Shown in pieces: positions 1 through 5,836 of a DNA stretch of 64,000 nt (the first letter of the stretch is position 1; the number at the start of each line of letters is the position of its first letter). The position numbers and the translations under genes were made by a program. Where the stretch lies: the IMG/VR virus record IMGVR_UViG_3300042879_003514, positions 1-64,000 of that record; one strand, written 5' to 3'. Below the pieces are notes generated by a model. The model was not told where the DNA came from. It was given only the letters and a program-made list of their open reading frames with translations, and made no database searches. Source of the stretch: a virus.

Positions 1-18
1 CACTACTTCAAGATTGAT

Positions 19-318
19 GTGGGCAATCTAAATAATTTTTGGGGATTTAGCGAATGGATCAAAGATGTAATTAGTCAAATAGACAATCTTCCTGTTAGTG
101 TTTCGTTTCCTGTGAATGATTTGATCCCCAATACAGCGGGTGGCTTAAACTCCCCCCTGTATTTGGGGAACAATCATTTTAATGAGGGCGTATGGAAGAT
201 GAAATATTTTGTATATAACCCAATTCAAATGAGTTATATTAAACACTTAGAGAGTCATGCTGTTCATTTTATTAATCAACCATCCTATTATAGAGGATTA
301 TATGATATTCTTAATTAG
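19..318 (+). CDS. hypothetical protein, probably 5'-truncated by window edge
   Basis: ORF track; no recognisable motif. Confidence 0.45.
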   Translation: MGNLNNFWGFSEWIKDVISQIDNLPVSVSFPVNDLIPNTAGGLNSPLYLGNNHFNEGVWKMKYFVYNPIQMSYIKHLESHAVHFINQPSYYRGLYDILN

Positions 319-326
319 GTATTTCA

Positions 327-731
327 ATGGATGAAAGAAATTGGTATAAGATTAAAGATCTAGTTGGATTTATTAATCATGCTAGAGAACTTGTATTCAA
401 ATTATTTGGAGAAGTTAATGAAAAAGCAGATGATGATATAACTTATACTCTATCGGAGTTAGCACCAAAAGATAAAGAAGAACTAGATAGAATTTTAACA
501 TATGATGAATGTGTGGTGATAGCAAGAAATCATATTAAAATTAAAATTAGTAAAAAAACTAAAAGAGAAAGTTATTTTGTTAATGATACTATTCTCAGTG
601 AAATTTTAGAATCATTCAATAGTAGAATGGTTAGCAACATACTTGCTAAATTAGTTAGTGATGGTTTATTGGATAGTGCTTTTGATACAGAAAAAAATGA
701 TTTTATATTTTGGGTAGTTGACAAAAAATAA
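327..731 (+). CDS. hypothetical phage protein
   Basis: ORF tightly packed between neighbours. Confidence 0.7.
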   Translation: MDERNWYKIKDLVGFINHARELVFKLFGEVNEKADDDITYTLSELAPKDKEELDRILTYDECVVIARNHIKIKISKKTKRESYFVNDTILSEILESFNSRMVSNILAKLVSDGLLDSAFDTEKNDFIFWVVDKK

Positions 732-742
732 TTGGAGAAAAT

Positions 743-1648
743 ATGTCTAATAGAGTTGGTAGGCCATCTAAGTTTGATGATATTATTGGTCAGTCAGATG
801 TTATAAATCGTATACGCATCGTGGCTCATGGTTGTTTAAACTCTGACGGTGTGATGCCTCATGTTTTAATTGATGGGCCTCCTGGGCTTGGTAAAACAAC
901 TATAGCGAGTGCAATAGCCAGCGAACTGAATGTGAACCTATACACGGTCAATGCTGCAAATATACGAAGCCCAAAAAATATTGTTCCATATTTGATGGGA
1001 ATTGCACCACGATCAGTTCTATTTATAGATGAAATTCATAGGCTTCCGAAACTTGTTGAGGAATTCTTATATCCTGTAATGGAAGATTTTGTATTAAATA
1101 TAACTGTGGAAGACCAACCAGAGAAAATTGATCTACCATTATTTACTATAGTTGGTGCGACAACCAGTGGCGGTAGTTTAAGTCAGCCTTTTTATGATCG
1201 TTTCACAATTAAAGAACATTTGTCTTTTTATAATGATGTTGAGTTAGCCAAACTAGCAGGATTGAACGCAAATAAACTCGGACTAATGATAAGCGAAAAT
1301 GATCTATTAGAAATTGCAAAACGAAGCAAGGGAACCCCTAGAATTTTAAATGCAAGATTACAGTGGTATAAAAATTATACCTCCTTCTATAAGGATAAGG
1401 CTTTATCTGTAGATGAAGTTTTTGATAGTCAGGGAATAGATAGTAGAGGATTGGATAATTATGATAGAATGTATTTGTTAGTATTGCAAAAGGCTAAGGG
1501 AAATGCTTTGGGTTTAAAGGGTATTTCTTCTATGACAGGGATCGCTATTGATACTATTGAAAATAGTATTGAGCCTTATCTAATAAGAAAAGGATATGTT
1601 ATTAGAACTCCTAAAGGTAGGATTATTAATAGTGCAAAGATTTCCTAA
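743..1648 (+). CDS. ruvB: Holliday junction branch-migration AAA+ ATPase RuvB
   Basis: RP..FDDIIGQ N-terminus, Walker A GPPGLGKTT, Walker B FIDEIHRL, GATT, DRF, GTPR, IEPYL..RTPKGR; GGAG RBS. Confidence 0.95.
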   Translation: MSNRVGRPSKFDDIIGQSDVINRIRIVAHGCLNSDGVMPHVLIDGPPGLGKTTIASAIASELNVNLYTVNAANIRSPKNIVPYLMGIAPRSVLFIDEIHRLPKLVEEFLYPVMEDFVLNITVEDQPEKIDLPLFTIVGATTSGGSLSQPFYDRFTIKEHLSFYNDVELAKLAGLNANKLGLMISENDLLEIAKRSKGTPRILNARLQWYKNYTSFYKDKALSVDEVFDSQGIDSRGLDNYDRMYLLVLQKAKGNALGLKGISSMTGIAIDTIENSIEPYLIRKGYVIRTPKGRIINSAKIS

Positions 1649-1664
1649 ATAAGTAGAGGCTATT

Positions 1665-2042
1665 ATGTATAAACATATTGTTGTAATTTTACTCTTTATT
1701 ACAAATTATTCTGTGTCAACTGATAAAATTTATTCAACTACTTTAGAAGATGCTGTATTATTATCAGAATCACAAAATAAGCCAATATTAGTTATATTTT
1801 CTGCTGAGTGGTGTAAACCATGTAGAAGATTAAAAGATGATATAAATTTTGGAAAATATAATAAAGAACTATCTAATACAATAGTATGCTTTGTTGATAT
1901 AGAAGATAGACAGGATCTAAAAAAAGAATACAAAGTAGATTCTGTGCCTGACAGCAGAATTTTGGTAGATAGGATAGAAAAACATAGAATAAATGGATAT
2001 AATCCAAATAAATATAAACAATGGTTAATGAATAATGACTAA
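1665..2042 (+). CDS. thioredoxin-family protein with hydrophobic N-terminus (possibly exported)
   Basis: FSAEWCKPC CxxC motif, cis-Pro region SVP, N-terminal IVVILLFI. Confidence 0.85.
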   Translation: MYKHIVVILLFITNYSVSTDKIYSTTLEDAVLLSESQNKPILVIFSAEWCKPCRRLKDDINFGKYNKELSNTIVCFVDIEDRQDLKKEYKVDSVPDSRILVDRIEKHRINGYNPNKYKQWLMNND

Positions 2043-2337
2043 TAATAGTTTATTAATTTGTATATTTATTTTTTCTATTATAATAAGTAGTGTAGTTGGT
2101 TATATTCTAGGTAGAATTAATAGTATATCCGGAAATTATGTTTCTCAATCAAAGAAATCTGAAAAAAAACATGTAATTACTAATTCTATCTCTGATATAT
2201 CTATTGATGATAAAAAATTTGTTACTGATATAAAAACAGATAGTTTTGAAAAAAAGTATGATAGTCTAGGAGATACAAAAAAATCTAAAGATAACATAAA
2301 AAATTCTGTTAATAAATTAAAAAATATGAAAGGTTAA
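2035..2337 (+). CDS. single-pass membrane protein, candidate anchor for downstream actin
   Basis: N-terminal TM LLICIFIFSIIISSVVGYILG followed by a charged soluble tail; ends 3 nt before the actin gene. Confidence 0.75.
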   Translation: MTNNSLLICIFIFSIIISSVVGYILGRINSISGNYVSQSKKSEKKHVITNSISDISIDDKKFVTDIKTDSFEKKYDSLGDTKKSKDNIKNSVNKLKNMKG

Positions 2338-2340
2338 ATT

Positions 2341-3342
2341 ATGGCAAAAGGTCTAGATGTTGGTACAAGTTATATTGTATTATCTCAAGAAGATGACAAT
2401 CAAATTGTCTATAAAGATTTTAGAGATGCCTTTTATATTATCAAGCCAACCACGCCAGTTGCAACAAAAATGATAGAAAAAGGATTGGCTGGTAAAATTT
2501 TTATTAAAGATAATGATGGCTCTTTTATTATATTAGGTAGAGATGCCATAGAAAAAGCAGTAGAAAGAAATGATACAGCAAAAAGACCAATGTATAGAGG
2601 CGTCGTTTCTGCTAAAGAAAAGGATGCAAAAAGAATACTTGCTTTTATTCTTAAAGAAGTAGTCGGCATAGCATCAGAGTCAGGTGAAAAACTAGTATTC
2701 TGTATACCAGCACAACCAGTAGATCAAGATGATGAGGACTTTGATGTTGGGTATCATGAAGATGTTGTTAAAAGTGTGTTATCAGAATGTGGATATGATT
2801 CTAGGGCAATCAATGAAGCAGAGGCTCTTTGTTATGCCGAATTAGAATCAGACGATTATACTGGAATAGGAATAAGTTGTGGTGCTGGAATGACTAATGT
2901 TTGTGTTATGTTGAACGGTGAACCAACCGTTATATTTAGCACAACAAAGTCAGGAGATTGGATAGATCGTATGAGTGCCGTAGCAACTGGAGAAACAGAT
3001 AGTGTTGTTCAAGCGGAAAAAGAAGGAGGAGACTTTACGATTGGTCAATTAACAGATAATGCTGTGCTTAGTGCAGTCTCGGCATACTATGAGAGATTAA
3101 TAGACTATACTACAAAACAATTAACAGCAGCGCTAAATGGTCATAAATCATTACCGAAATTTAAAAATCCTTTAAAAATTGTTATTGCCGGTGGCACATC
3201 TCAGGCGAAAGGATATATAGAAATTTTTACAAATAAATTAAAAGACAATAATTTTCCTTTGCCAGTTAAAGAGGTTGTTCACGCAACAGATCCATTACAC
3301 GCTGTTTCAAAGGGATGTTTAATAGCATCTAAAGTATTGTAA
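2341..3342 (+). CDS. actin-fold (ASKHA) ATPase, volactin/MamK-like
   Basis: phosphate-1 GLDVGT, connect-1 INEAEA, phosphate-2 GISCGAGMTNV, adenosine motif IVIAGGTS, C-terminal DPLHAVSKG. Confidence 0.85.
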   Translation: MAKGLDVGTSYIVLSQEDDNQIVYKDFRDAFYIIKPTTPVATKMIEKGLAGKIFIKDNDGSFIILGRDAIEKAVERNDTAKRPMYRGVVSAKEKDAKRILAFILKEVVGIASESGEKLVFCIPAQPVDQDDEDFDVGYHEDVVKSVLSECGYDSRAINEAEALCYAELESDDYTGIGISCGAGMTNVCVMLNGEPTVIFSTTKSGDWIDRMSAVATGETDSVVQAEKEGGDFTIGQLTDNAVLSAVSAYYERLIDYTTKQLTAALNGHKSLPKFKNPLKIVIAGGTSQAKGYIEIFTNKLKDNNFPLPVKEVVHATDPLHAVSKGCLIASKVL

Positions 3343-3653
3343 TGTTTAGCTTTAGGCGAAAGATAAGACACGCCTATAGATCACCAAAATGGCAACAGGT
3401 CAGAAAACAGCATTTAGAAAACAACAATACCTGTGCTGCTTGTGGAAGAAATAAAAAACTTGAAGTTCATCATATTGAACCTGTTCATCTAAATCCCGAC
3501 AGGGAACTGGATCCATCAAATCTTATCACTCTTTGTGATGATCCTTGTCATATAGTATTTGGCCATTTAATGAATTATAAAAGTTGGAATAAATATGTAA
3601 TAAATGATTGTGAAGTGTATTTAGATAGGGTAAAAAATAAGCCTCTTAAATAA
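3342..3653 (+). CDS. HNH endonuclease
   Basis: CAAC...LEVHHIEP...NLITLCDDPCH. Confidence 0.88.
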   Translation: MFSFRRKIRHAYRSPKWQQVRKQHLENNNTCAACGRNKKLEVHHIEPVHLNPDRELDPSNLITLCDDPCHIVFGHLMNYKSWNKYVINDCEVYLDRVKNKPLK

Positions 3654-4403
3654 ATGAGGTGTCTTGTGAAATCTTTATTAGTTCTTCTTATAATGATATG
3701 TTCATTACATGGATTTGCAGGAACTATAGACCCTAATGTGTCAGATCAAAAATATATTAAATATGCAGAAGGATTCAATTATGTTGGTAAATTATGTGGG
3801 ATTTATGATGATGGCAAGAATTTCTGTGCTTCGGCAGTAGTAATAGATGACCATTGGATTGTAACAGCAGCACATGTTGTGAAAAATTCTAATGAATGTT
3901 ATCTAACAGTAGAGGACAGAGTATTTTGTATAAATAGGGTTATTTACCATAAAGAATTTGATAAAGATGAGTTGGGTCGCTGTGATATAGCATTAGGATA
4001 TTCAGAAAAAAAGATAGGGTTAAAATTTTATCCACAACTATATGATAAAGATGATGAAGTTGGTAAATTTTGTTCTATTGCTGGTTATGGAATAACAGGA
4101 ACATTTAAAACTGGTGCAAATAAGTCTGATTTAAGAATTAGGGCTGGGTCAAACAGAATAGATAGCATATTTCGTCAGACCCTTGTGTGTTCAGCATCAA
4201 CCAGAGGCTCTAGGAACGCCACAGAACTTGAATTTTTAATTGCTAGTGGAGACAGTGGGGGTGGTTTATTCATTGATGGAAAACTGGCTGGAATCAACTC
4301 TTTTGTGATGTCAGATGACAAACCAGACTCAACCTATGGCGACGAGTGCTGTCACACACGAATTAGTGTATTTAAAGAATGGATCAGGAGTATTATAGAA
4401 TAA
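3654..4403 (+). CDS. trypsin-like (S1) serine protease with signal peptide
   Basis: TAAHV (His), DIAL (Asp), GDSGG (Ser); hydrophobic N-terminus. Confidence 0.92.
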   Translation: MRCLVKSLLVLLIMICSLHGFAGTIDPNVSDQKYIKYAEGFNYVGKLCGIYDDGKNFCASAVVIDDHWIVTAAHVVKNSNECYLTVEDRVFCINRVIYHKEFDKDELGRCDIALGYSEKKIGLKFYPQLYDKDDEVGKFCSIAGYGITGTFKTGANKSDLRIRAGSNRIDSIFRQTLVCSASTRGSRNATELEFLIASGDSGGGLFIDGKLAGINSFVMSDDKPDSTYGDECCHTRISVFKEWIRSIIE

Positions 4404-4443
4404 TATCAAACCAACTGCATAATAATTATTAGCAGATTGCTAT

Positions 4444-4474
4444 GAAGTCAAGACACAATTTTTTACTTGACTTC
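4444..4474. repeat. 9-bp perfect inverted repeat overlapping a -35 box
   Basis: GAAGTCAAG (4444-4452) ... CTTGACTTC (4466-4474). Confidence 0.75.
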
Positions 4475-4494
4475 CCAAAAAACTATGCTATTGT
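4467..4494 (+). promoter_or_regulatory. sigma70-like promoter
   Basis: TTGACT-N16-TATTGT with TG extended -10; intergenic, upstream of AAGGAG RBS. Confidence 0.6.
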
Positions 4495-4533
4495 AAAGTA
4501 TTCAACAATCATAAGGAGTTAAATTGAAATAAG

Positions 4534-4722
4534 ATGCTAGATGATTTTGATAGAGAAAACAGAAAAAATAGAAAAAAACAAATTGGTAATAAAAACAAAA
4601 ACAACTACGACATAAGCGAGGAACAAAAGTTTATGTCTAAGGCAAAAAAAGCGTTCAAGAATAAAATTAGAGATTTACAAGAAGAAGAACAATGGGAAAA
4701 TTGGGAAGATGAAATATATTGA
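4534..4722 (+). CDS. small charged hypothetical protein
   Basis: AAGGAG upstream; overlaps the next ORF. Confidence 0.7.
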   Translation: MLDDFDRENRKNRKKQIGNKNKNNYDISEEQKFMSKAKKAFKNKIRDLQEEEQWENWEDEIY

Positions 4723-4954
4723 AGAATTAAATAACGGCGATATTTTTGCTGTGGACCAACACGCATTTCTTTTGACTTCAGACTTTAAAAAGAATGGATC
4801 AAAACTTGCATACTCTTTGAAGAATGGTAATCCAAAATGGTTTGAGGCGTCTGATATTGTAGACACTATTCAAATATATACAATGGATGAAAAAAACACT
4901 ATTATCCCAATCAAAGAAACTCAAAAGAATGAATATGCTACAAAAAATATTTAA
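4709..4954 (+). CDS. hypothetical protein
   Basis: ORF in operon-like overlap. Confidence 0.7.
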   Translation: MKYIEELNNGDIFAVDQHAFLLTSDFKKNGSKLAYSLKNGNPKWFEASDIVDTIQIYTMDEKNTIIPIKETQKNEYATKNI

Positions 4955-5168
4955 CTTTCTTAAGTCTCTGTTTAAACACTTACGATCTGGCAGACCTAAG
5001 AGTAGTCAATCATTAATTGATTTTAGATTCGATATTTGTTCAAGCTGTGACAAAATGGATAAGTATAATAATGAATGTATCGTTTGTGGATGTAACATTA
5101 ATAATAAGAAAATTTTTATGAATAAATTAGCATGGGCTGATCAAAAATGCCCAATAGGGAAATGGTAA
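4887..5168 (+). CDS. small Cys-rich (Zn-binding) protein; real start probably ~4929-4935
   Basis: RFDICSSC...CIVCGC...CPIGKW. Confidence 0.7.
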   Translation: MKKTLLSQSKKLKRMNMLQKIFNFLKSLFKHLRSGRPKSSQSLIDFRFDICSSCDKMDKYNNECIVCGCNINNKKIFMNKLAWADQKCPIGKW

Positions 5169-5170
5169 AC

Positions 5171-5836
5171 ATGGCATTTGAGTCTGTCTCTGTTTCTGAT
5201 CAAAATAATACAGAAATAGTTCCAGAAAACTGGGTTGTTCTTCTAACAACAGCGGTTAATCCATTTGGAAAAAATGATACTAATGAAATTCTATACAGAG
5301 AACAATTATACAAAAAACAGATTCATAGATGGTTAAATGATACAGATTATGAGATATTTGTAACAGAAAGCACTGGTGGGACAATACCTAATCTGCTTGA
5401 TAGTCCAAGATTACATCTAATAAATTTTAATTTAATAAAAGAATTTGGAAAATCTACATCTTCATCTTTCTACGAATCCCATAGTTTTATTAAGTTTGTA
5501 AAATTTTTTCAAGAAACAGACTTTTATGATAAAACAACTCATATATTAAAAGTAACAGGAAGATATTTTTTACCTGATATCAATAAACAAATATCTGTAT
5601 TAAGAAATTATGATGTGTATATTCAGAAACACAAATCTAAGAATTGGCAAAATACGGAATATTTTGGTATTAACAAACATCTTTTGTTAGATTTAGCAAA
5701 TAAAAACTTATCAGATAATACTAACTTAGAACACACATTTTATAATTTTATTCAGGATAAAAAACGTATGAAATTTGAGCCTTTTGAGAATAATATCTCT
5801 AGAGGCGGAGATGGAAAGACTCTTAATCCTCTATAG
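5171..5836 (+). CDS. glycan-cluster protein (putative glycosyltransferase-related)
   Basis: ILKVTGRYF motif of a type seen in polysaccharide loci; start taken as the ATG after the previous stop. Confidence 0.5.
   Translation: MAFESVSVSDQNNTEIVPENWVVLLTTAVNPFGKNDTNEILYREQLYKKQIHRWLNDTDYEIFVTESTGGTIPNLLDSPRLHLINFNLIKEFGKSTSSSFYESHSFIKFVKFFQETDFYDKTTHILKVTGRYFLPDINKQISVLRNYDVYIQKHKSKNWQNTEYFGINKHLLLDLANKNLSDNTNLEHTFYNFIQDKKRMKFEPFENNISRGGDGKTLNPL

Follow-up and report, generated by a model that had tools for sequence, protein, structure and literature searches.

A large, putatively tailed phage from lake metagenomes encodes an actin that is classed by sequence in the volactin family and, directly upstream of it, a predicted membrane protein of 100 aa (TM100). 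By analogy with the haloarchaeal volactin systems, the tail of TM100 may tie filaments of the phage actin to the inner membrane, a reading to which we assign a probability of roughly 60%. The present analysis establishes the family membership and fold of the actin, the synteny and topology of the pair, the sharing of a tail motif with other volactin partners, and the protease fusions. A conserved volactin stands beside a TM protein with a common tail, and the phage therefore probably builds membrane-tethered filaments in its host.

The locus and the family of the phage actin

The DNA analysed (the window; 64,000 nt, positions 1 to 64,000 of IMG/VR record IMGVR_UViG_3300042879_003514) is part of a 95.3 kb virus contig carrying phage-type replication genes. 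Complete genomes of relatives span 138-224 kb and carry a terminase-like ORF; two of them have direct terminal repeats. These features uphold the claim that the actin is phage-encoded. The contig is a large, putatively tailed phage that recurs in lake metagenomes. An ORF of 2954 aa forms part of the basis for the label 'tailed'. Ten large ORFs outside the window had no match in PHROGs, and the Pfam family Phage_capsid had none in five related records, so virion genes are not recognisable by profile. The polymerase search returned no cultured relative above 35% identity, and we therefore make no host call. Promoter and terminator sites were found at background level (34 compared with 29.8 expected).

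The two ORFs of the predicted pair lie 3 nt apart on the same strand and in the same frame (Table 1), and the actin-fold motifs quoted in the original prediction were all located exactly.

Table 1. Features of the actin locus, with positions in the window
Feature	Position	Strand	Basis
RuvB-like AAA+ ATPase	743..1648	+	Pfam RuvB_N, AAA_lid_4, RuvB_C
Signal-anchored thioredoxin (CKPC)	1665..2042	+	Pfam Thioredoxin
TM100, single-pass membrane adaptor candidate, 100 aa	2035..2337	+	Synteny, topology
TM100 TM helix, residues 6-26, conserved IGY..G	2050..2112	+	Hydropathy; predicted N-out/C-in
TM100 conserved tail module, residues 55-100	2197..2334	+	Alignment of 50 unique homologues
TM100 core peptide NIKNSVNKLKNMKG, residues 87-100	2293-2334	+	Alignment, profile comparison
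Volactin-family actin-like ATPase, 333 aa	2341..3342	+	PF25216, AF2, Foldseek
Phosphate-1 GLDVGT, residues 4-9	2350..2367	+	D6, G8 invariant (80-sequence alignment)
Connect-1 INEAEA, residues 157-162	2809..2826	+	E159 nearly invariant (80-sequence alignment)
Phosphate-2 GISCGAGMTNV, residues 177-187	2869..2901	+	G181, G183 invariant; S179 nearly
Family signature SGDWID, residues 204-209	2950..2967	+	Intein site in some relatives
Adenosine motif AGGTS, residues 283-287	3187..3201	+	G284, G285 invariant
HNH endonuclease	3342..3653	+	Pfam HNH
Secreted trypsin-like serine protease, intact H/D/S triad	3654..4403	+	Pfam Trypsin

By profile search, the phage actin is a member of the volactin family and not of MreB, FtsA or ParM. 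The Pfam model Volactin (PF25216) matched it with 216.3 bits (E 9.6e-64; cut-off 35), residues 1-329 aligning with profile positions 1-320 of 321, and a six-frame genome search gave the same result. In contrast, MreB_Mbl (PF06723) reached 17.8 bits with partial coverage, below its cut-off of 27, and the NCBIfam models for MamK and BeeR gave 23.5 bits (cut-off 400) and 23 bits (cut-off 530); all models for MreB, MamK, salactin and BeeR scored <27 bits. Pfam gave no match to Hsp70, FtsA, PilM or sugar-kinase families, and no ParM, ParR or Alp family was matched at the locus in Pfam, PHROGs or NCBIfam. PHROGs contained no family for the actin or TM100, PADLOC matched neither protein to a defence system, and a PDB sequence search found no relative. 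When 72,556 plasmids were searched, the only matches were haloarchaeal volactins (34-36% identity, 99% coverage), and these plasmid copies scored 436-447 bits on PF25216. In agreement, an MreB-rooted tree placed the phage actin inside the volactin family, as a separate clade. The fit of the motif string to volactin, put forward in the original prediction, is borne out by Pfam, and the placement outside MreB, FtsA and ParM is supported by the Pfam and NCBIfam scores together with the structural ranking.

The AF2 model of the phage actin (pLDDT 96.9, pTM 0.93) shows an actin (ASKHA) fold with four subdomains and matched MreB, MamK, BeeR and actin in Foldseek with a probability of 1.00, the best matches being MamK (TM-score 0.71-0.73), BeeR (0.72) and MreB (0.65-0.68). 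The protein might instead be an ASKHA ATPase that does not polymerise, akin to chaperones, kinases or EutJ/PilM, with an incidental membrane-protein neighbour, as the volactin family carries Ser in phosphate-2 where other actins carry Asp. We consider this very improbable. The match to the Volactin model is full-length, and the founding volactin of H. volcanii forms filaments with phosphate-2 in the same S.GAGM form, which is also that of haloarchaeal volactins. The structural neighbours are also filament formers, with EutJ far lower in the Foldseek list (rank 28, TM-score 0.54), and the absence of Pfam matches to Hsp70, FtsA, PilM and sugar kinases points the same way; the grouping with EutJ, PilM or Hsp70 that had been raised as the alternative was not seen.

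In relatives, the actin gene is an intein target, and in one of them (P0122) the intein is inserted at SGDWID.

TM100 and its pairing with the actin gene

TM100 has one hydrophobic helix followed by a Lys-rich tail, and no Pfam, PHROGs or NCBIfam model recognised it above cut-off. Pfam matches to Saf_2TM and YfjL_N (E 0.02-0.05) were rejected as noise, as were those in NCBIfam. Positively charged residues (K/R) are more numerous after the helix than before it in 46 of the 50 family members and fewer in none, and natural fusions (see below) put a secreted protease N-terminal to the helix. From these features, TM100 is predicted to be an N-out/C-in single-pass membrane protein. An AF2 model of a TM100-actin read-through, in which the 2-residue tether is artificial and contacts cannot be shown, has a helix at TM100 residues 3-31 and a tail of strand and helix with a pLDDT of 78-84.

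The Shine-Dalgarno sequence of the actin ATG is formed by the last TM100 codons (AAA GGT), and the arrangement indicates coupled translation of TM100 and the actin. At its other end, the TM100 gene shares 8 nt with the thioredoxin gene. The embedded ribosome-binding site may explain part of the conservation of the terminal K-G in TM100.

Conservation of the TM gene upstream of the actin in other phages had been proposed as a check, and of 80 loci from related phages (most from one phage lineage), 76 indeed have TM100 there, with gaps of 1-6 nt, while other neighbours move; in three loci the pair is separated or TM100 is absent. The pairing survives insertion of a homing endonuclease (locus L042) and holds down to 53% actin identity, and the TM helix is retained in nearly all members of the TM100 phage clade. 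Among the genes of its neighbourhood, the actin shows the strongest conservation across the 80 loci (81-88% identity, median 83.8%), compared with 68-83% (median 73%) for the RuvB-like neighbour, present in 79 loci, and 37-60% (median 47%) for TM100. The thioredoxin (31/80 loci) is a variable neighbour outside the constant pair, and the HNH endonuclease (33/80 loci, at varying positions) is a mobile insert outside the actin-TM100 system. The trypsin-like protease, near the actin gene in 61/80 loci with a median identity of 51%, is probably an associated component of the system.

Large uncultured phage contigs that carry the system number in the hundreds to thousands and fall into at least three clades. 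Single-sequence IMG/VR scans gave one locus for the family member P0127 and three for P0124. Distant representatives of the family come from Planctomycetota, Minisyncoccales and others.

A short C-terminal motif in three families of upstream partners

The check proposed for the TM gene also covered archaea. In Halobacteria, 73 of 80 volactin loci have a co-oriented gene directly upstream for a CdpA-like four-TM protein of the DUF7139 type; the genome-contig profile search used a haloarchaeal volactin alignment as query. PF23600 (DUF7139) did not match TM100, which has one TM helix instead of an N-terminal domain of ~150 aa with four and should not be filed as DUF7139. Both proteins have the same architecture of a disordered cytoplasmic linker and a small C-terminal module, and a short motif suggests that the modules may be related in sequence. 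The adjacency of HVO_2016 and volactin is already noted in one paper; the shared tail and the phage pairing are new.

The last ~45 residues of TM100 are conserved in 50 unique homologues and end in I..SVNKLKNMKG. A third partner family, which is TM-less and ends in LDDA..ALKALRKKK, occurs in clade-A6 phages. When the tails were compared with hhalign, TM100 and DUF7139 scored 16.2 (shuffle maximum 15.3; P 0.017-0.018), TM100 and A6 scored 16.6 (14.6; P 0.0054) and A6 and DUF7139 scored 29.0 (18.3; P 3.6e-5), the real score being reached by 0/200 shuffles in each comparison. The two comparisons with A6 lend indirect support to a relation between the TM100 and DUF7139 tails. With a motif expression composed after the sequences were seen, the motif was present in 72% of TM100-type upstream partners compared with 0.18% of other ORFs; over the sets of upstream partners the figures were 72%, 49% and 29%, compared with 0.2-0.5% of other ORFs. 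TM100 carries one copy, at its C-terminus, and DUF7139 two, followed by ~50 more residues. At 12-28 columns, the common motif is short; it is amphipathic and rich in Lys and Leu.

Such a likeness could have arisen by chance among Lys/Leu-rich amphipathic helices, with the adjacency reflecting common descent only: the 80 loci come largely from one lineage, the motif spans few columns and TM100 and DUF7139 give a modest P value. This account is scarcely credible to us, because the adjacency outlasts rearrangement of every other neighbour, the L042 insertion and divergence to 53% actin identity. Furthermore, the motif occurs on three unrelated N-terminal architectures, each encoded immediately before a volactin gene. 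In every one of the three profile comparisons the real score beat 200/200 shuffles, and the motif background is 0.2-0.5%.

In clade A5 phages, the partner has no TM helix and a different C-terminal peptide (W.IPDF..K[IL].FGK), and membrane tethering is therefore not universal in the family. Since TM-less partners occur in other phage clades, it is the C-terminal peptide that stays constant, not the anchor in the membrane. The predicted anchor-plus-filament system thus stands in part: it is favoured by the haloarchaeal gene pair, by the tail motif held in common and by the fusions of protease, TM helix and tail, whereas the TM helix is not family-wide.

The TM-less A5 and A6 partners also show that the partner's core role does not depend on a link to the membrane, as would be expected if the partner regulated assembly (as a nucleator, capper or sequestering factor at the membrane) and were no structural tether, its tail setting where and when filaments form. 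The gene coupling and motif conservation fit such a regulator equally well, and Schiller et al. expected volactin-binding regulators (PMC10869688). We nevertheless judge it unlikely, given that almost every member of the TM100 clade keeps the TM helix, that CdpA-type proteins act as anchors (PMC12126565) and that volactin filament tips touch the membrane (PMC10869688). Regulation would in any case overlap with tethering rather than exclude it.

The trypsin-like protease of the locus matched Pfam Trypsin with an E value of 5e-16 and has the triad motifs TAAHV, DIALG and GDSGG. In two phage lineages, only 47% identical, a secreted trypsin-like protease is fused to the TM helix and tail. The same helix and tail thus carry a periplasmic protease, and the filament system would therefore be physically linked to an envelope-acting enzyme. 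This fusion provides the sole functional hint found, and it points to the cell envelope.

A different function, a ParMRC-like machine that partitions or positions phage DNA or a plasmid-like prophage in the manner of ParM/ParR, AlpC/AlpA or PhuZ, might be proposed from the RuvB-like DNA motor, which is constant at the locus, and from a weak N-terminal HTH_ParB match in some family members (21.1 bits in P0137, from a Planctomycetota MAG). Related systems offer precedents, as the related haloarchaeal actin salactin helps to partition DNA (PMC10869688) and the prophage actin AlpC supports viral replication (PMC4446434). However, TM100 is predicted to be a membrane protein and has no DNA-binding domain in Pfam, PHROGs or NCBIfam, and the locus lacks ParM, ParR and Alp family matches. 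Within 5 kb there is no array of centromere-like repeats (positions 1-5200 of the window contain only chance two-copy repeats), and the fusion partner is a periplasmic protease rather than a DNA binder. Together, these points make partition distinctly unlikely.

We therefore favour membrane tethering. By analogy with H. volcanii volactin, the phage actin would polymerise into cytoplasmic filaments. TM100 would be a bitopic inner-membrane protein with its N-terminus outside and its tail inside, and its C-terminal peptide (..I..SVNKLKNMKG) would bind the actin directly, so that the bound tail would tether filaments to the membrane, probably by their ends. The tail peptide would be the constant part, with an N-terminal part that varies between a single TM helix, a 4-TM CdpA-like domain and a soluble domain. 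Our guess is that, in infection, the system serves for spatial organisation at the cell envelope or across it, rather than for the partition of DNA. More tentatively, and with considerable doubt on our side, the peptide [LIV]-[DSN]-x-[AS]-x-x-x-L-[KR]-x-[LM]-[KR] might be a universal volactin docking handle by which abundant freshwater phages couple their actin across the inner membrane to periplasmic enzymes such as a trypsin-like protease. If true, this handle would be common to archaeal CdpA-like anchors and at least two unrelated phage adaptor families, and the phage would build a transmembrane cytoskeletal linkage with MreB-RodZ-like logic, remodelling or patterning the host envelope during infection.

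Comparison with known cytoskeletal systems

To our knowledge, hardly any phage cytoskeleton has been described apart from tubulins (PhuZ/TubZ) and one DNA-holding prophage actin, AlpC. The phage actin belongs to a family so far studied in one archaeon only, and the searchable literature yielded no paper on a phage system of volactin and membrane partner. In H. volcanii, volactin forms dynamic filaments whose tips contact the membrane (PMC10869688). This protein (VolA, HVO_2015; PMC10869688, PMC12126565) and the phage actin share the Pfam family, S.GAGM.N and GDWID, and the HVO_2016-type partner resembles TM100 in being a membrane protein whose gene comes immediately before the actin gene in the same orientation; it also has a linker and an apparently related conserved tail motif. 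Unlike VolA, the phage actin is bacteriophage-encoded with a low-GC freshwater host, and its putative role is in infection instead of cell-shape switching; TM100 has one TM helix in 100 aa, whereas the haloarchaeal DUF7139 partner has four in ~300 aa. If the tail is a volactin-binding handle, it would answer what anchors volactin tips to the membrane and would point to HVO_2016.

CdpA (HVO_0739) is the experimentally shown membrane anchor of the haloarchaeal FtsZ ring, and volactin is enriched in CdpA pull-downs (PMC12126565). By architecture alone, it resembles TM100 in having a membrane domain, a disordered linker and a small C-terminal domain that organises a polymer, but CdpA, with its four TM helices, acts together with FtsZ, SepF and CdpB (PMC12126565).

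Adaptors of the ParM and AlpC type hold their filament by a short C-terminal helix. In ParM/ParR/parC, and in AlpC/AlpA of prophage CGP3 (PMC4446434), an actin-like filament likewise has an adjoining small adaptor gene, and AlpC is a precedent for a (pro)phage-encoded actin (PMC4446434). However, ParR and AlpA are DNA binders that depend on centromere or viral DNA sites, whereas TM100 is a predicted membrane protein at a locus without such repeats, and its gene is upstream of the actin rather than downstream. PhuZ/TubZ are also cytoskeletal polymers encoded by large phages, but have the tubulin fold and no described membrane adaptor, and position the phage nucleus (PMC4244570). MamK and BeeR are the closest solved folds, although they are other families by NCBIfam; with MamJ, MamK provides an example of an adaptor that links a filament to a membrane organelle.

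The Foldseek matches to MreB include 2wus, the MreB-RodZ complex. RodZ binds MreB via an N-terminal HTH domain, whereas TM100 presumably binds via its C-terminal peptide, and the phage locus, unlike MreB-RodZ, has no link to the cell-wall synthesis genes mreC or mreD. The protease fusions suggest a viral link of a cytoplasmic filament to a periplasmic enzyme, an undescribed mode of envelope manipulation, and here MreB-RodZ offers a likeness that fits them: a bitopic protein that binds an actin-like filament through its cytoplasmic part and faces the periplasm with its other side.

Layout and conservation of the gene pair

The pair described in the original prediction, a 100-aa single-pass (TM) protein followed by a 333-aa actin, was found as claimed, with both ORFs on one strand, in frame with each other and with only a stop codon and one further codon between them. 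All of the actin motifs claimed were located in the 333-aa protein, at residues 4-9, 157-162, 177-187, 204-209 and 283-287. The final two codons of the TM gene (AAA GGT) double as the Shine-Dalgarno sequence for the actin. At its 5′ end the TM gene shares 8 nt with the thioredoxin gene before it, and the stop codon of the actin overlaps the start of the following gene. A promoter/terminator scan of the module gave promoter signals at background level only and no terminator-like site between its genes. Since gene spacing is so tight, we infer that the RuvB-like, thioredoxin, TM, actin, HNH and trypsin-like protease genes form one tightly coupled transcription unit.

Across 80 related loci (actin identity 81-88%), the actin is the best-conserved protein of the neighbourhood, with a median identity of 83.8% compared with 73% for the RuvB-like protein, 51% for the trypsin-like protease and 47% for the TM protein. 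The TM gene lies directly 5′ of the actin gene in 76/80 loci, 1-6 nt away, and this pairing is kept while the thioredoxin (31/80), HNH (33/80) and protease (61/80) genes vary in presence or place. Among the exceptions, locus L042 carries a 202-aa ORF between the two genes, the N-terminus of which resembles a GIY-YIG endonuclease; a ∼4.4-kb insertion separates them in L074 and L078; and L067, a rearranged contig, lacks TM, RuvB-like and protease homologues over the 5 kb before the actin. Both the HNH gene and the L042 insert suggest that homing endonucleases come and go around this highly conserved gene. No RuvA was recognisable beside the RuvB-like gene, and PADLOC returned no defence-system match for the actin or TM protein.

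In an alignment of 50 unique TM homologues, the TM helix carries IGY..G, the linker after it varies, and the final ∼45 residues (sID..K.V.dIkT.glEKKYd.LG..K.s.enIs.SiNKLKN.K), hereafter the tail, are strongly conserved. K/R counts were higher after the helix in 46/50 homologues and lower in 0/50, and by the positive-inside rule the predicted topology is therefore N-out/C-in. The pair is also kept in distant phages (actin identity 53-75%), where partners end in ..SVSKLAQLKGK, ..SRAKLAGILKKK or ..ASLAKLKKHK, and a few have no clear TM helix.

Features of the actin module, partner variants and associated genes (positions in the window unless a locus handle precedes them)
Feature	Position	Remarks
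RuvB-like ATPase	743-1648	RuvB_N, lid and RuvB_C; 79/80 loci, 68-83% identity, always just upstream of actin module
Thioredoxin	1665-2042	CKPC active site; N-terminal hydrophobic signal or anchor
TM protein	2035-2337	100 aa
Actin	2341-3342	333 aa
HNH endonuclease	3342-3653	between actin and protease genes; position varies
Separate homologous protease	3654-4403	
Protease-TM-tail fusion	L032:3848-4996	382 aa
Protease-TM-tail fusion	L037:3848-4996	382 aa
Protease-TM-tail fusion	L192:1285-2433	382 aa
Protease-TM-tail fusion	L193:1841-2989	382 aa
A5-type partner	L082:3762-3992	
Thirteen large ORFs of the phage record	G000:62562-95297	minus strand; one of 2954 aa; at and beyond window end; ten searched against PHROGs

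Family, fold and spread of the phage actin

The Pfam Volactin model (PF25216) covers the 333-aa protein end to end (216 bits, E 9.6e-64). MreB_Mbl scored 17.8 bits, under its cut-off, and the NCBIfam salactin, MamK and BeeR models scored 23-27 bits against cut-offs of 400-530; PHROGs held no family for the protein and a PDB sequence search no relative. An AlphaFold2 model built with 80 diverse relatives (pLDDT 96.9, pTM 0.93) matched MamK (TM 0.71/0.73), BeeR (0.72) and MreB (0.65-0.68) best in Foldseek, followed by eukaryotic actin, with EutJ at rank 28 (TM 0.54). MamK, BeeR and MreB are polymerising prokaryotic actins, so the protein does not group with the non-polymerising ASKHA members that would have spoken against a cytoskeletal role. 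The only matches among 72,556 plasmids were haloarchaeal megaplasmid genes (34-36% identity, 99% coverage), themselves true volactins (436-447 bits on PF25216). Phage and haloarchaeal volactins alike carry Ser in phosphate-2 (S.GAGM), which marks it as a family trait.

The family is large. We found 1903 relatives at E <1e-3 (90% clusters), of which the best 120 clusters share 84-100% identity with the 333-aa protein and are all unnamed or labelled 'hypothetical protein' at source; an exhaustive search of 50% representatives gave 940 clusters, 276 of them at E <1e-30. Four pattern sets, which may overlap, retrieved 238, >510, >474 and 432 IMG/VR viral contigs with the actin, some exceeding 500 kb, and unannotated copies occur in two published 'huge phage' genomes. 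We built a maximum-likelihood tree with E. coli MreB as the root. Haloarchaeal volactins group in it as a single tight and shallow clade (SH-aLRT 99), the window's phage lineage makes up a separate one (SH-aLRT 97), and the two huge-phage copies fall in still other clades. Named members are present in Planctomycetota and Minisyncoccales MAGs. Inteins (Intein_splicing plus LAGLIDADG, Hint) interrupt the gene in family representatives P0122 and P0131, in the former at the conserved STTK|SGDW site (equivalent to window 2947-2952), and ∼17 of the 150 best representatives (∼680-770 aa, two matched stretches) may be interrupted likewise. Other architectures (P0126, P0137 and P0162) comprise a tandem double volactin (729 aa) and N-terminal extensions.

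The IMG/VR virus record is 95.3 kb long (CheckV completeness 67%; the window is its first 64 kb), with a GC content of ∼30%. It encodes phage-type replication genes (split Pol III alpha, DnaB-like helicase, primase and ribonucleotide reductase), and four related records, all complete (138-224 kb; direct terminal repeats in two), each contain a ∼678-aa ORF that matches Terminase_6N. Ten large ORFs of the record had no PHROGs match at 1e-5, and the HK97 capsid Pfam model matched neither the record nor four related genomes; the virion module is very divergent, beyond the reach of both. A polymerase search found no match above 35% identity in cultured phages. As DnaE-, DnaB- and LPS-type genes are present, the host is probably bacterial. 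Near-identical DNA was detected in 19 further metagenome runs from lake, drinking-water or freshwater sources (∼18 studies, dated 2019-2025).

Upstream partners in haloarchaea and other phage clades

Volactin turned up in 399 haloarchaeal genomes when species-representative genomes were scanned. Eighty loci were retrieved with upstream DNA, and in 73 of them, including seven Haloferax species, a ∼300-aa DUF7139 (PF23600) membrane protein is encoded directly 5′ on the same strand, a parallel to the upstream membrane-protein gene of the phages. DUF7139 was absent within ∼3-4 kb upstream in five Halorubrum species (L109, L120, L122, L163 and L166), separated from volactin by one gene in L093, and downstream in L102. 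A single sentence in Liao et al. 2025 notes that the CdpA-like four-TM protein HVO_2016 adjoins volactin HVO_2015 (VolA) of Haloferax volcanii; the authors show that CdpA itself, made up of a TM domain, a disordered linker and a small C-terminal domain, acts as the anchor of the FtsZ ring and that its pull-down enriches volactin (log2FC 2.5, p 0.06) (PMC12126565). Schiller et al. 2024 observed that the tips of volactin filaments bind membrane and expected unknown binding factors (PMC10869688).

DUF7139 tails (L084-L166) contain two conserved elements, tttRs.gVD.aV.gL..l.GG and st.DDQtaaL.ElRe.q, which carry an L..L[KR]-type motif as two tandem copies (VD.aV.gL..l.GG and DDQtaaL.ElRe.q), followed by a conserved extreme C-terminus (gl..R.r.lf). 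A third kind of partner, of 190-270 aa and without a TM helix, precedes the actin in phage clade A6 (including huge phage LR745208) and ends in ..p.FIP..IV......LDDA..ALKALRKKK. The tails alone were compared profile to profile, each against 200 column shuffles. A6 and DUF7139 tails scored 29.0 (shuffle maximum 18.3, P 3.6e-5), tails of the 100-aa TM family and A6 16.6 (maximum 14.6, P 0.0054), and tails of the TM family and DUF7139 16.2 (shuffle mean 8.8, maximum 15.3, P 0.018; reversed controls 8.8 and 10.6). A motif regex matched 72% of upstream partners in the window clade, 49% in A6 and 29% in Halobacteria, compared with 0.18-0.51% of the remaining ORFs ≥60 aa at these loci, the background rate being the informative number because the regex was composed after the fact.

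Clade A5 (L255-L334, including LR756511) has a ∼70-90-aa partner, also without a TM helix, with a different conserved end (W.IPDF..K[IL].FGK after an I.IDLNINLN-type stretch); an A5-type partner was also seen at L082. Since A5 and A6 partners are TM-less, the original claim of a membrane-anchored pair holds in part: the general feature is a small partner encoded upstream whose C-terminal peptide is conserved, and only certain clades add a membrane anchor.

Protease fusions and a model for the pair

Two lineages (L032/L034/L037 and L192/L193) encode, upstream of the actin, a 382-aa ORF that runs from a signal peptide and trypsin-like protease (Pfam Trypsin match, catalytic motifs intact) through a linker to a TM helix and the conserved tail. 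The two versions are only 47% identical, so the fusion is maintained rather than an assembly error. Its order of parts settles the topology: the protease must lie outside and the tail inside. The fusion also makes the putative filament partner and an envelope-acting enzyme parts of one chain.

We also folded the TM protein and actin as one read-through chain, the genes being in frame, with the stop read as Gly and 29 paired rows. The model placed the TM helix at 3-31, followed by a linker (32-65, pLDDT <50) and the tail (∼70-97, pLDDT 78-84), which contains a strand (80-84) and a helix (89-95); the tether is artificial and contacts are not part of the output. A strand needs a pairing partner, and the model, tail strand included, is suggestive only.

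We propose that the phage actin would polymerise as VolA does and that the C-terminal peptide of its partner would bind it; in the window clade, this binding would tie filaments to the inner membrane. By analogy with ParR-ParM and other actin binders, the likeliest mode would be docking of an amphipathic helix in a cleft at the filament end, which would fit VolA tip anchoring. A weak ParB-type HTH (21.1 bits) in one N-terminal extension, from a Planctomycetota MAG, hints at DNA-linked roles for some family members. For the system studied here, DNA partition is the lesser guess, as neither a DNA-binding adaptor nor a centromere-like repeat array was found near the genes. Organisation of envelope-acting functions is the better guess, because of the protease fusion and the envelope-directed neighbours: a signal-anchored, probably periplasmic thioredoxin, a secreted protease and a large LPS-type glycan cluster (the last read from sequence alone).

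The volactin protein family, the HVO_2016 adjacency, and phage cytoskeletons and actin-adaptor pairs as kinds were already known. The searchable literature contains no mention of DUF7139 or of volactin in phages. New relative to it are the wide occurrence and strong conservation of volactin in large phages together with a dedicated partner gene, the tail peptide that archaeal and phage partners appear to share, and the fusions of protease, TM helix and tail.
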